A DNA stretch of 64,000 nt from Escherichia phage JP4: sequence record PQ330092. One strand, given 5' to 3'. Shown in pieces: positions 37,865 through 43,151 of this stretch (position 1 is its first letter; each line of letters begins with the position of its first letter). The notes under the pieces are model-generated. The model worked only from the letters and a program-made list of their open reading frames with translations, was not told the origin of the DNA and searched no databases. A program made the position numbers and the translations under genes.

Positions 37865-38122
37865 ATGGCTGTAGGATACGCGAAAGATGGGGCCGAGCAA
37901 GACGAGATTAACGCAGTGATTCAGGCCGCCGTTAACCACGCTAGAAAGCAAATTAACGCACAAATAGAATCACTGATACATTGCCTCGACTGCGGCGATA
38001 AAATCCCTGAGAATCGACGCCAGGCCGTTATAGGGTGCATGTATTGTATTACTTGCCAGGAGGATCATGATAGTACTTTTAAAAGAGATCCGCGTAATTG
38101 TTGGCATAGATCTATGAGATAA
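37865..38122 (+). CDS. TraR/DksA-family C4 zinc-finger protein
   Basis: CLDCGDKIPENRRQAVIGCMYCITCQ (CxxC-17-CxxC), size and layout typical of phage TraR. Confidence 0.85.
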   Translation: MAVGYAKDGAEQDEINAVIQAAVNHARKQINAQIESLIHCLDCGDKIPENRRQAVIGCMYCITCQEDHDSTFKRDPRNCWHRSMR

Positions 38123-38129
38123 AAAGTAA

Positions 38130-38157
38130 TTGACAGTACTGAAAGATAGTGTATAAT
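38130..38157 (+). promoter_or_regulatory. sigma70-type promoter
   Basis: TTGACA-16-TATAAT. Confidence 0.6.
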
Positions 38158-38186
38158 GTTTTATATCTTAACTGAGGATAGTAATC

Positions 38187-38543
38187 ATGGGAATACAACA
38201 TATCACGCGTACTACTGACAATGGCGAGATCACTGGCTATCAAGTACAGGGCAAAGTAGCACAATTGCAGTACTGGTTTGTTAAACGTGGAATCATTGCA
38301 CCGGATCTTGATTATGACCGTGTAGCGTTTATTGATTCTCTTTATGTTGATCCTGATAGTCGGGGCAATGGTGAAGGTAACGAATTAATGAATGCCTTTA
38401 TCGATGCCGCCGATGATTCAGATTGTATCATCTTAGAATGCGATACGGGAGAAGATAACGCCTTTAATCTTAAAGAATGGTACGAAGGTTTCGGATTCGA
38501 GGTATTGATAGATAGTGAATATCCTATCATGATTTTATCATAG
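38187..38543 (+). CDS. GNAT-family N-acetyltransferase
   Basis: IDSLYVDPDSRGNGEGNELMNAFIDAA (motif A-like) and LKEWYEGFGFE. Confidence 0.75.
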   Translation: MGIQHITRTTDNGEITGYQVQGKVAQLQYWFVKRGIIAPDLDYDRVAFIDSLYVDPDSRGNGEGNELMNAFIDAADDSDCIILECDTGEDNAFNLKEWYEGFGFEVLIDSEYPIMILS

Positions 38544-38546
38544 TAC

Positions 38547-38604
38547 TTGCATTTAGTTTTCAGTACTGTTATAGTACTTGCATCAAGGGGAAACATCTTC
38601 CCCT
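38547..38604 (+). promoter_or_regulatory. early promoter with 5' hairpin, cassette 14
   Basis: TTGCAT-17-TATAGT, then AGGGGAA-ACATC-TTCCCCT. Confidence 0.6.
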
Positions 38605-38621
38605 ACTAAGAGGAAATAAAA

Positions 38622-38810
38622 ATGGAAAACTTATCAAGTATTTTAGTACAAGATGATTTCGGTAATCCTGGAAGTGCTATCATTGTTCGGGGTAATAAAG
38701 CAACATTTGTTATTGCTGGTGGACCTGTACAGCGTAGCATTAAAAACAATGCCGTTACTATTAATAATGTACGCTATCGCTTAGATAAAGAATTGATTCA
38801 TAAACTGTAA
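38622..38810 (+). CDS. hypothetical early protein (62 aa)
   Basis: Track ORF; GAGGA SD. Confidence 0.8.
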   Translation: MENLSSILVQDDFGNPGSAIIVRGNKATFVIAGGPVQRSIKNNAVTINNVRYRLDKELIHKL

Positions 38811-38837
38811 TATTAATTTAATAGAGGATAACAATAA

Positions 38838-39161
38838 ATGTACATTCATACTACTATCACAAAGGAAGTCCGTTGCCAGTTCGAAAGTATTCCGGGCGTA
38901 TGTTTCATCACTGGTACGTTTTCCCCTGGTGATCGTGATAATCCAGTACTGTTACAATTACGCCATCCATCATGGGATAAAGCATTTGATCTACCGTTGA
39001 ATGAATTCGCAACTACTGCTGAAAAGTACATTAAAAATATTCGCGAGAATGATCGACTATTCATTAATGCTTTTAGTGATGCCGCGTTAAGTGAGATCCA
39101 TGCTGTATTGGTTGCAATCATGGAATCAATGGAGAAAACTATATTCAAACAAGGTGAATAA
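38838..39161 (+). CDS. hypothetical early protein (107 aa)
   Basis: Track ORF; AGAGGA SD. Confidence 0.8.
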   Translation: MYIHTTITKEVRCQFESIPGVCFITGTFSPGDRDNPVLLQLRHPSWDKAFDLPLNEFATTAEKYIKNIRENDRLFINAFSDAALSEIHAVLVAIMESMEKTIFKQGE

Positions 39162-39167
39162 AAACTA

Positions 39168-39227
39168 TTGACAATGCAATCTAGTACTGTATAATAAGTT
39201 ACATGAAGGGGAGAAATGATTCTCCCC
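39168..39227 (+). promoter_or_regulatory. early promoter with 5' hairpin, cassette 15
   Basis: TTGACA-16-TATAAT, then GGGGAGAA-ATGA-TTCTCCCC. Confidence 0.65.
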
Positions 39228-39244
39228 ACTGAGAGGAAAGAAAA

Positions 39245-39457
39245 ATGCAAGGTCAACTAATCGTTCGTAAATGGTCTGATACTAACGAAAAACCGTGGGA
39301 TGTACAATACATCGGACCGGATGGGGTATCACGTTATCAGCCTGGCGTAACGCATAGTACTGAGCAATATGCCGCCGCTCACCGCGAACGCCTGTTAGAA
39401 TCCATGAAACAGGGATTCTGTGAAAAATTCATTCAAGATCATTGGCTGAAAGATTAA
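39245..39457 (+). CDS. hypothetical early protein (70 aa)
   Basis: Track ORF; GAGGA SD. Confidence 0.8.
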   Translation: MQGQLIVRKWSDTNEKPWDVQYIGPDGVSRYQPGVTHSTEQYAAAHRERLLESMKQGFCEKFIQDHWLKD

Positions 39458-39474
39458 TAGAAGGAGTACAGCTT

Positions 39475-41206: not shown

Positions 41207-41250
41207 AGACTCTAACTTGTAGTACTAACTTAACTAATAGGATGTATACC

Positions 41251-41646
41251 ATGATTACTAAATTCTACGCTACCCGTGAAGCTGCCCGTATTGTTGCACG
41301 CGAGGAAGGCGAAACATTTAAAGACATGGGCAAAGATGCACCGAAAGGTCAACGCTGGGCCGTACAGTTCAAAGAGATCTCTGATATTGTGAATTCACCG
41401 GAGCCAGTACTAACAGCAGCAGAACTAAAACGAGCGGATTTACTGGCGTCAATACTTGATGCACAAGATGAGTTTATCGCTGATTCTGATATCAAAGTAC
41501 AGACAAACCATACCGCATGGACTCACGCGGATCACCTGGCAAACCTTAAGCGTCCAAGTGAACTGATTCGCAACCAGAAAGAGATCCGACACGACCGTAA
41601 GGGTAATCGTGTAACAGTATACAGTAAACGCCGCCAGGTTATCTAA
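41251..41646 (+). CDS. hypothetical early protein (131 aa), paralog of 29306..29572
   Basis: Start at ATG 41251 (AGGA 8-9 nt upstream); MITKFYATREAARIVAR aligns with the paralog; the track start 41242 is possible. Confidence 0.75.
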   Translation: MITKFYATREAARIVAREEGETFKDMGKDAPKGQRWAVQFKEISDIVNSPEPVLTAAELKRADLLASILDAQDEFIADSDIKVQTNHTAWTHADHLANLKRPSELIRNQKEIRHDRKGNRVTVYSKRRQVI

Positions 41647-41668
41647 TAACTTGCAGTACTAACAACAC

Positions 41669-41694
41669 GGCGGGATCAGTTCCCGCCTTTTTTA
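41669..41694 (+). terminator. intrinsic terminator
   Basis: GGCGGGA-TCAGT-TCCCGCC followed by T6. Confidence 0.8.
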
Positions 41695-41707
41695 TAGGAC
41701 AAACAAA

Positions 41708-41962
41708 ATGATTAAGGTTCAACTATATAAAGATAACATCTTACGGGTACACTATAAAGCACCTCAGAGAATCATCACAAAGGCCGTACAGCTTGCTAAT
41801 GAGTTTATTAATGGTAACCTATTACCTAGGAAGTTAAGCAACGGGAAACTGCGTGTAATCGATGTAGACACTAACAACAGAATAGTAATAGAGAACACAG
41901 GAAAGATAAACCTTTATGAGCATCAACAATACAATAAGAAAATAAAACTAATATCACGTTGA
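41708..41962 (+). CDS. hypothetical protein (84 aa)
   Basis: Track ORF; AGGA SD; the TGA stop lies inside the next TTGACA. Confidence 0.75.
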   Translation: MIKVQLYKDNILRVHYKAPQRIITKAVQLANEFINGNLLPRKLSNGKLRVIDVDTNNRIVIENTGKINLYEHQQYNKKIKLISR

Positions 41963-41987
41963 CAGTACTCAATTGTTTTAGTACTAT
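41959..41987 (+). promoter_or_regulatory. sigma70-type promoter
   Basis: TTGACA-17-TACTAT. Confidence 0.6.
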
Positions 41988-42015
41988 GTACACATACCAA
42001 CACGGGAGAAACAAA

Positions 42016-42234
42016 ATGAAATTATCTAAAATCGAAAAGAAAACTATTGATGAAGCAGTTAAGCACGGTTATACCTTTCGTAATGATTCACATTTTACCA
42101 ATTTTCAACAAGGGTATCGTACTATTAAAAAACTAATTGACAAAGGTTTATTAGTTGAAGTCAATAACGGTAACGGTATCGAGTATCAACCAACACAAGA
42201 CGCATTTTATTTTAAGAAATATAATATTATCTAA
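42016..42234 (+). CDS. hypothetical protein (72 aa)
   Basis: The track ORF 41959 start lies in the promoter; trimmed to MKLSKIEKK after GGGAGA. Confidence 0.7.
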   Translation: MKLSKIEKKTIDEAVKHGYTFRNDSHFTNFQQGYRTIKKLIDKGLLVEVNNGNGIEYQPTQDAFYFKKYNII

Positions 42235-42263
42235 TTGACAGTACTCAAATGTTTTAGTACTAT
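42235..42263 (+). promoter_or_regulatory. sigma70-type promoter
   Basis: TTGACA-17-TACTAT; near-duplicate of 41959..41987. Confidence 0.6.
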
Positions 42264-42292
42264 ATGTACATACCAACACGGGGAAAAACAAA

Positions 42293-42535
42293 ATGATTAC
42301 TTTAGAAAAACGTATCAAAGAAACTACATCGCTGGTGGAATTGTTAACAGTACTGAAATGTAAAACTACTCGGTTTAGTACACCGGACTTTATTAATATG
42401 GTTGATGTTAACGGTCGTTATCGTATTGCAGTAGAACAAGGCACGGCAAAAGTATTCAGTACTAAAAACACTAAGGAAGTGATTCACGCGGTTAGTGTAA
42501 AAAAAGTAGTTGCCATTGATAGTAAAGTACTGTAA
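42293..42535 (+). CDS. hypothetical protein (80 aa)
   Basis: Track ORF; GGGGA SD. Confidence 0.8.
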   Translation: MITLEKRIKETTSLVELLTVLKCKTTRFSTPDFINMVDVNGRYRIAVEQGTAKVFSTKNTKEVIHAVSVKKVVAIDSKVL

Positions 42536-42538
42536 TAT
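42510..42538 (+). promoter_or_regulatory. sigma70-type promoter inside the 3' end of the upstream ORF
   Basis: TTGCCA-17-TAATAT. Confidence 0.45.
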
Positions 42539-42566
42539 AGTTTCATTAACTCAAGGAGAACATGCA

Positions 42567-43151
42567 ATGCGTAATTATACTAAATTCATCCGTACACTGT
42601 CAGAAATGGAAACCAACAAAGAGATCCTTTCAGCTTGTCGGTTAGCTGGTCTGGAGATCATCGGGGCAGGTTCTTCCCGTATAGTTTTCGCTTTAAATGA
42701 TCGGTTAGTGATCAAGGTCGCGAATTGTGATGCGGGTGTAGAACAAAATGAAACAGAATGTAGGGTATGGAATTTTTTAGACTATGACCGCCCTCAGTTG
42801 AAACAGTTCTTCGCTAAAGTGCATATGCATTTAAGCGATCCTGATAATATGTTTATTGTTATGGATCGGTTGAGTACTGCAAGTAAAGGCAGTGTAAAGC
42901 ACGTTAACGCGTGCAATGAATTAAAGTACAATATTAAACGTAATGCCATTGAACGCCAGCACCGCTTTGCTGATGCACTACAACACGTTGATGATACATT
43001 ATCAACACTAACGATAAGAGATATCAGAAAACAGAATATCGGCCAGGATCGCAACGGCCTTATTAAAGTACTTGATTACGGTTTAACCCGCAATATCTGG
43101 AATCAGTACTATAAAAAGCGTGATGTAAAAGCCGTAACTATAACACGATAA
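42567..43151 (+). CDS. protein-kinase-like fold protein (194 aa)
   Basis: G-loop GAGSSRIVF, VIKV lysine, NETE helix-C Glu, catalytic DIRKQN, DYG (DFG-like). Start at ATG 42567, 8 nt after AAGGAG. Confidence 0.7.
   Translation: MRNYTKFIRTLSEMETNKEILSACRLAGLEIIGAGSSRIVFALNDRLVIKVANCDAGVEQNETECRVWNFLDYDRPQLKQFFAKVHMHLSDPDNMFIVMDRLSTASKGSVKHVNACNELKYNIKRNAIERQHRFADALQHVDDTLSTLTIRDIRKQNIGQDRNGLIKVLDYGLTRNIWNQYYKKRDVKAVTITR

Follow-up and report, generated by a model that had tools for sequence, protein, structure and literature searches.

What brings a zinc-finger protein, an acetyltransferase and a kinase together in phage DNA that is present twice per genome, and do the three act as one unit? 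We address this question for a 64,000-nt stretch of Escherichia phage JP4 (sequence record PQ330092), called the window below and numbered throughout by whole-stretch positions, in which the three open reading frames (ORFs) that we call p1, p2 and p3 are all found on the + strand. A preliminary description of this DNA had read them as TraR/DksA-like, GNAT and kinase-like proteins, and these fold assignments held in profile searches for all three proteins and in structure prediction for p3. On balance, we favour the reading of p1, p2 and p3 as accessory genes that are independent of each other, in a Rak2-like jumbo phage whose immediate-early region, a 20.1-kb direct terminal repeat (DTR), contains them all. 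The preliminary description read these ordinary phage early genes correctly, with an over-extended further interpretation of the three as a “module”. The features that carry the argument are as follows.

26792..46905, + strand: first DTR copy (20,114 bp), an exact repeat with the same ends as the DTR annotated in phage vB_Ec-M-J
46906..64000, + strand: second DTR copy, cut by the window end and identical to 26792-43886
37865..38122, + strand: p1, a YbiI-like DksA/TraR C4 zinc-finger protein of 85 amino acids (PF01258, phrog_54 and PDB sequence matches)
38187..38543, + strand: p2, an N-terminally short GNAT protein of 118 amino acids (Pfam, phrog_1249 and PDB 1yr0)
42567..43151, + strand: p3, a predicted minimal protein-kinase-fold enzyme of 194 amino acids that ends 22 residues after the DFG-equivalent D170-Y-G
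57979-58236, 58301-58657 and 62681-63265, + strand: second copies of p1, p2 and p3, respectively, in the second DTR copy

The terminal repeat and its promoters

Positions 37800-43200 share 89–97% nucleotide identity with the Asteriusvirus jumbo coliphages 121Q, PBECO4, phAPEC6 and vB_Ec-M-J, and by this measure the source phage is a member of the genus Asteriusvirus, a 121Q/PBECO4-like, Rak2-like jumbo coliphage. Positions 26792-43886 equal 46906-64000 base for base (an exact repeat with a period of 20114), and the window therefore contains one full 20,114-bp unit (26792-46905) with a second copy directly after it. In blastn alignments, position 1 of vB_Ec-M-J falls at 26792 of the window, and its position 21525, where its annotated “Direct Terminal Repeats” (1-21525) end, falls at 46905. 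Terminal repeats of 20–21.5 kb were determined by PhageTerm in the phages fEgEco12 and Sharanji (PMC13070987; PMC11895373), and the repeat of fEgEco12 was confirmed with restriction digests (PMC13070987). That p1, p2 and p3 lie inside the terminal repeat, in DNA present twice per genome, had been proposed beforehand and is borne out, as all three are within 26792-46905 and the boundaries of the exact repeat match those annotated in vB_Ec-M-J. Because the two copies abut, 46905/46906 marks where, in the representation of PQ330092, the right end of the linear genome meets its left end. A packaged linear genome has one DTR copy per end and a concatemer junction has a single copy; the record therefore seems to have the two genome ends joined, probably through an assembly effect or a circular representation.

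The + strand of one DTR copy contains about 50 ORFs of 40 or more amino acids that do not overlap, together with 11 perfect sigma-70 sites (TTGACA-16/17-TATAAT), ten of which are located 30–57 nt upstream of an ORF, whereas the 26.8-kb left flank (1-26791) has zero perfect consensus promoters. The impression of strongly promoted small genes given in the preliminary description was thus accurate. The same contrast between repeat and flank recurs in vB_Ec-M-J (12 perfect promoters in the DTR versus 0 in the 12 kb of flanking DNA examined) and in Klebsiella phage Muenster from another genus (13 versus 0 in the 16 kb of flank examined), which makes strongly promoted small genes a property of the clade. 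Such a density of strong sigma-70 promoters makes early transcription by the host RNA polymerase likely. For phage PA5oct, which its authors call related to 121Q, PBECO4 and RaK2, RNA-seq revealed that most genes of the long DTR are highly transcribed at 5 min, and this phage is blocked by rifampicin, depends on the host RNA polymerase and makes two abundant non-coding RNAs from its DTR (Lood et al., PMC7318152). PA5oct resembles JP4 as a related Rak2-like phage with a DTR early region, but its DTR is larger (39 kb, 105 genes). RpoD-like early promoters were also predicted for phage CBB, some of them inside the terminal repeat (Buttimer et al., PMC5259590).

The promoter prediction for CBB and the RNA-seq of PA5oct make early expression of the JP4 DTR genes a well-founded inference, and the host RNA polymerase is the likely enzyme to transcribe them. 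For relatives of JP4, the DTR and its early character are already part of the literature. A familiar parallel is the pre-early (first-step-transfer) region of phage T5, a long terminal repeat in which very strong sigma-70 promoters precede densely packed small genes. Like the DTR of JP4, it is direct and duplicated in every genome; T5 is known for its two-step DNA transfer, and the likeness drawn here is one of architecture. Pfam searches with ten further DTR ORFs returned nothing above threshold, and an Rfam search of the DTR gave no match near a gathering score.

Families of the three proteins

The membership of p1 in the DksA/TraR family is secure, as judged from profile matches. Its zinc ribbon (C40-x2-C43-x17-C61-x2-C64) is the CxxC-17-CxxC finger that had been noticed from the letters alone, and the protein scores above the gathering score of Pfam zf-dskA_traR (PF01258; 37.1 versus 24.9 bits) and matches phrog_54, “DksA-like zinc-finger protein”, at E 2e-18. 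Among PDB sequences, Escherichia coli YbiI is the best match (2kgo, E 8e-12, residues 1-69), followed by TraR (E 1e-5). Both YbiI and F-plasmid TraR or lambda Orf73 (5w1s, 6n57) share with p1 an N-terminal helix ahead of a C4 zinc ribbon with equal spacing, an Arg-Arg pair after the first CxxC and an acidic D-x-A tip. The features with which TraR homologues work are a DxxDxA tip, the residues R48/R49, which contact the rim helices and beta'-Si3, and a C-terminal helix contacting beta-Si1 (Gopalkrishnan et al., PMC9239242). R51-R52 of p1, the equivalents of R48/R49, are invariant in a family alignment of 20 sequences that includes TraR. The N-terminus of the p1 family is highly conserved (consensus M-A-V-G-F-A-K-D-G-A-E-Q), and D8 and A10 of p1 align, via YbiI, with the second Asp and the Ala of DxxDxA; we take D8-x-A10-x-Q12 to correspond to D74-R-A76-A-Q78 of DksA. 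Relative to TraR, p1 has an N-terminal extension of two residues. Homologues with 62–72% identity occur in T4-like phages, and the gene is found in 930 phage records, T4-like phages included, which marks p1 as a gene common among virulent myoviruses (jumbo and T4-like), whereas TraR-type homologues are carried by temperate phages or plasmids.

The GNAT motif A-like and FGF motifs that had been pointed out in p2 are present, and three GNAT models in Pfam exceed their thresholds: Acetyltransf_1 (PF00583; 37.2 bits, gathering score 20.7), Acetyltransf_7 (33.5 bits, 27) and Acetyltransf_10 (26.3 bits, 23.6). Motif A reads R59-G-N-G62-E-G64, in agreement with Q/R-x-x-G-x-G/A, and is followed by a G101-F-G-F104 element. 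The protein also matches phrog_1249 and the PDB sequence 1yr0 (E 7e-4), as well as, weakly, the mini-GNAT family Acetyltransf_CG (E 0.0011). In the Acetyltransf_1 profile, only positions 53-116 of 116 are covered, and only 41 residues precede the match, so the beta1-alpha1-alpha2 arm of p2 appears to be missing or reduced. The gene was found in 24 phage records and is absent from about ten Asteriusvirus records that have p3; it is dispensable because about a third of these close relatives do without it, and p2 is an accessory gene.

The motifs of p3 follow each other in kinase order (G33AGSSRIVF, V48IKV, D152IRKQN157, D170YG), as the preliminary description had it, and their catalytic residues do not vary. 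Residues G33/G35, K50, E64, D152, N157 and D170 are invariant in 12 close homologues, and among 60 distant relatives R38, K50, E64 and D170 are invariant, with N61 and D152 at least 90% conserved. Pfam Pkinase (PF00069) stays below threshold (18.1 versus 31.7 bits, E 0.0018) and is reached at E<=0.01 by only 4 of the 60 family members, and the matching PHROG, phrog_4301, is labelled “unknown function”. The best 60 of the 93 PDB sequence matches are all protein kinases, aligned over the catalytic loop and DFG, and a search with the family profile finds BTK, MKK4 and MEK1 (E ~1e-4) across the same elements. A second AlphaFold model, built with the 60-sequence alignment, has the bilobal kinase fold (predicted local distance difference test 92.3, predicted template-modelling score 0.89) with one short helix after DYG. 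Since the chain ends 22 residues after D170-Y-G, p3 has neither an activation segment nor helices F-I. A pseudokinase reading was rejected because every catalytic residue is invariant, and p3 is, by prediction, a catalytically intact minimal kinase of Hanks type. A profile search of 1.84 billion representatives returned 1,740 relatives (representative clusters), of which 135 reach E<=1e-10 and the majority have 180–280 amino acids. In phage records, p3 itself was found 57 times, in every case in a Rak2-like jumbo phage, and in BFVD it resembles many small phage kinases, two of them in CBB. This uncurated minimal-kinase family, not covered by Pfam, is the most interesting remainder of the analysis.

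Some relatives of p3 are parts of longer proteins. A distant family member of 3,248 amino acids (P0081) has a p3-like kinase domain at 859-1032 in a protein with a tape-measure domain (PhageMin_Tail, E 6e-30), and the kinase may therefore enter the cell together with the DNA. This combination of domains is a hint that kinases of this kind are active from the outset of infection. In other members, as many as six stretches match (P0021, of 923 amino acids, is an example). The p3 model also matches, at rank 29, the BFVD entry A0A6J5LUL6 (E 8e-6, template-modelling score 0.55), a 412-residue protein of an uncultured Caudovirales phage that UniProt names “NAT_SF domain containing protein” and in which a kinase may be joined to a domain of the acetyltransferase superfamily.

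The analogy to the early kinase gp0.7 of phage T7 with which the preliminary description had supported p3 is weak. As a homologue of gp0.7, p3 was rejected: in hhalign, the 60-sequence p3 profile reached a probability of 5% against gp0.7 and 2% against gp144 of phage Sharanji (WNN14432.1). The latter protein is encoded outside the DTR and matches T7 gp0.7 (BLASTP E 4e-8), and WNN14351.1 is the p3 orthologue in the same phage, so that by these matches the Rak2-like lineage carries a separate, true homologue of the T7 kinase elsewhere. In the 64-kb window, neither tblastn with T7 gp0.7 nor a search for a gp144 counterpart found anything. Both gp0.7 and p3 are early-region phage kinases of minimal size without an activation segment, and in both the spacing from the catalytic Asn to the metal-binding Asp is 12 residues. 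They differ at the DFG position, which is DPV/DPx in the T7 kinase and DYG in p3, and at the C-terminus, where the T7 kinase has an SO/DNA-binding domain and p3 has no further domain. Homologues of the T7 kinase in jumbo phages keep the DPx motif (T7 kinase study, 2026 Nature; PMC13645617). BFVD entries named “Protein kinase” from several podophages match the p3 model at template-modelling scores of ~0.5–0.56. These podophages are presumably T7-like.

Independent genes and their possible roles

Read as independent early genes, the three would act as follows. On DNA entry, the unmodified host RNA polymerase would read the about 50 rightward small genes of the DTR, many from their own sigma-70 promoter. 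Most likely, p1 would bind the secondary channel of the enzyme and shift initiation away from kinetically fragile host promoters, e.g., rRNA promoters, and the stable consensus promoters of the phage would then receive the polymerase. The most likely part of p3 would be to phosphorylate host proteins on Ser/Thr early in infection, with host shut-down or the disarming of defences as the possible aim, and p2, which appears to keep the acetyl-CoA-binding core, would acetylate some amine.

Several results speak against these roles. The p1 protein stays under the NCBIfam cut-offs for both the YbiI equivalog NF008243 (79.2 versus 96 bits) and the TraR subfamily TIGR02419 (50.7 versus 59.7 bits). An aromatic residue stands where DxxDxA has its first Asp (Tyr in p1, Phe/Trp in relatives), and the place of the beta-Si1-contacting helix of TraR is taken by a distinct basic C-terminal tail (FKRxPRNCWHRSMR) that is conserved among phage homologues; the last 18 residues of p1 include Pro76 and do not align with the C-terminus of TraR. 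Even the nearest relative of p1, YbiI, is itself without an assigned function. In p2, the beta1-alpha1-alpha2 region that appears to be missing or reduced is the one that shapes the substrate site, and the p2 family amounts to two clusters among 5.8 billion proteins. In p3, the entire activation segment and helices F-I are absent. A literature search found no transcriptome or functional study of any Asteriusvirus DTR gene.

For p1, these points feed an alternative that we regard as possible but the less probable one, namely a YbiI-type zinc-ribbon protein with some other role than regulation through the secondary channel. The closer match to YbiI than to TraR, the incomplete DxxDxA and the different tail favour it, as does the remark of Gopalkrishnan et al. 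that not every C4 zinc-finger homologue of DksA/TraR acts like DksA (PMC9239242). Against it, the Arg-Arg pair and the D-x-A-x-Q tip are conserved, and all five TraR homologues tested bind RNA polymerase (PMC9239242). A TraR homologue that lacks the first Asp, Gp34 of X. bovienii, still bound RNA polymerase, with reduced activity (PMC9239242), and YbiI at high level was reported, as data not shown, to rescue dksA auxotrophy (PMC2613031). A TraR-like function of p1 is therefore plausible from its sequence, and of the earlier label “TraR-like” the family and the Arg-Arg pair stand, while the nearest relative is YbiI rather than TraR and the DxxDxA tip is only partial.

Of similar standing, and hence tentative, is an anti-defence role in which p3, and possibly p2, would modify bacterial immune proteins or signals, with the position in the DTR serving expression before the defences fire. 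The T7 kinase broadly disarms defences through promiscuous phosphorylation (PMC13645617), and the authors of the Sharanji study propose a defence-disarming role for the T7-kinase homologue of that phage (PMC11895373). Such a role also agrees with the conservation of p3 across the Rak2-like genera that carry it and with the variable occurrence of p2, an accessory gene, as is typical of arms-race genes. However, p3 is no homologue of the T7 kinase, which is guided to nucleic-acid-binding proteins by a C-terminal DNA-binding domain that p3 does not have, and PADLOC detected only a weak, generic kinase similarity, to PD-T4-6. A bolder reading, for which we would give less than even odds, is that p3 belongs to a large uncurated clade of ~190-residue phage kinases with a G-x-G-S-S-R loop and a chain that stops shortly past the DFG-equivalent motif, distinct from the T7 kinase, kept beside a ParE-like gene in Rak2-like DTRs and part of the tape-measure protein in at least one other phage, and constitutes a second, independent “first-minute” weapon that phosphorylates host proteins.

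Small-molecule or RNA targets seem improbable. Here, p3 would be a kinase of the APH or Ark1 kind, and p2 an acetyltransferase of small molecules or aminoacyl-tRNA. Minimal kinase-fold proteins such as HopBF1, Bud32, Rio, the archaeal RNA kinase Ark1 and APH(2'') are among the closest known systems to p3.

The features that bear on a common module, apart from the three genes themselves, are these.

37654-37681, + strand: candidate promoter TTGATC-16-TATAAT ahead of the 48-residue ORF and p1
37719..37865, + strand: ORF of 48 amino acids, its stop overlapping the p1 start (TAATG)
38130..38157, + strand: perfect sigma-70 promoter TTGACA-16-TATAAT, ending 30 nt before the p2 start codon
41708..41962, + strand: ParE-like toxin-domain protein of 84 amino acids (PF24732, 42.5 bits, gathering score 24.4)
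42235..42263, + strand: promoter-like TTGACA-17-TACTAT (10/12 match) ahead of the 80-residue ORF and p3
42293..42535, + strand: ORF of 80 amino acids, ending 31 nt before p3

The preliminary description had joined p1, p2 and p3 in one coordinated three-part early module that rewires the host RNA polymerase and host proteins through binding, acetylation and phosphorylation. All three are indeed in one promoter-rich DTR, p1 and p2 are adjacent in all relatives having both, and the match to A0A6J5LUL6 suggests that a linkage of kinase and acetyltransferase may occur in phages. Yet p2, although next to p1, has its own perfect promoter, and between p2 and p3 lie 4 kb with 12 ORFs and several promoters; p3 is probably co-transcribed with the 80-residue ORF, which has no family match in Pfam or PHROG searches. 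The distributions of the three are unrelated (930, 24 and 57 phage records for p1, p2 and p3), as is also evident from the Asteriusvirus records with p3 and without p2. In Muenster and in a metagenomic locus (L005), p3 and the ParE-like gene are kept, and the stretches examined contain neither p1 nor p2; the p3 homologue of Muenster (“putative protein kinase”) is inside the PhageTerm-predicted repeat, and that of the metagenomic locus is in a similar small-gene array. On these grounds, a single coordinated module is very unlikely.

The conserved pairing is therefore that of the ParE-like gene and the kinase gene. The ParE-like protein shares 65% identity with its counterpart in Muenster and 54% with that in the metagenomic locus, the gene is upstream of the kinase gene in both, and no other DTR gene was found to accompany p3 from genus to genus. 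All relatives examined that have the kinase gene have the ParE-like gene upstream of it. The protein is annotated as a YafQ-like toxin in Muenster, its gene has no recognisable antitoxin partner, and a search of PDB sequences with it gave no match.

Public records and recent papers already annotate these genes, so the gain lies in prioritising experiments rather than in discovery. GenBank names in place include “DksA-like zinc-finger protein” and “acetyltransferase”, and p3 is already a “(putative) protein kinase” in K64-1, Muenster, fENko-Kae01, SE_PL, ph0011 and Turkey3; NCBIfam has no equivalog-level name for p1, p2 or p3. Jumbo phages of the Rak2 group are under development for therapy, and more than 80% of their genes are without known function. 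As the DTR is duplicated, promoter-rich and probably the first DNA expressed, it is a natural place to seek host-takeover or anti-defence functions. One of its about 50 genes encodes a kinase that is predicted to be catalytically intact, is unrelated to the T7 kinase and is conserved across genera, another encodes a TraR/DksA-family protein, and the idea of a three-gene module gives way to the pairing of kinase and ParE-like genes.

Repeats and regulatory cassettes of the terminal repeat

The window contains 17 occurrences of a 13-mer, CCCAYAGGGTGCR, where 0.09 would be expected by chance, and none of them is outside the DTR. Together with a hairpin next to p3, its positions are as follows.

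29975, 35937, 37595, 39952, 43226 and 45479, + strand: 13-mer CCCAYAGGGTGCR; the set recurs at +20114
27880, 28095 and 30031, − strand: 13-mer CCCAYAGGGTGCR with one mismatch; the set recurs at +20114
43164..43191, + strand: hairpin AAAGGGATTGACTCCGGTCAGTCCCTTT with the −35 element TTGACT in its stem, followed by TGC-TATTAT, directly 3' of p3 and part of a ~190-nt repeat

Each of the six + strand copies of CCCAYAGGGTGCR per DTR is situated ~20–25 nt downstream of a −10 element, in a long intergenic gap, behind promoters of a distinct class (TTGACT/A-17-TGn-TATTAT/CATAAT). Exact copies are present also in vB_Ec-M-J, Muenster and the metagenomic locus, and the 13-mer could be a leader, an operator or a segment of a small RNA. 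The ~190-nt non-coding repeat occurs three times per DTR (35850-36040, 39880-40070 and 43140-43330), the last time directly after the kinase gene, and has no Rfam match. It consists, in order, of an A-run, the hairpin AAAGGGATTGACTCCGGTCAGTCCCTTT with the −35 element in the stem, an extended −10 element, the 13-mer and a second promoter (TTGCAT-17-TATAAT). Upstream of the kinase gene, two near-identical promoter-leader segments at 41959-42014 and 42235-42290 (TTGACAGTACTCAA..TACTAT..ACCAACACGGG) precede the two small ORFs, which suggests that regulatory cassettes were duplicated locally.

To the left of the DTR, 5 kb from its start, an array of about twelve tandem paralogous genes occupies 7382-21652 on the − strand, each encoding an RCC1-repeat (beta-propeller) protein of ~390–410 amino acids, with a unit spacing of ~1.2 kb (repeat families D2-D4).

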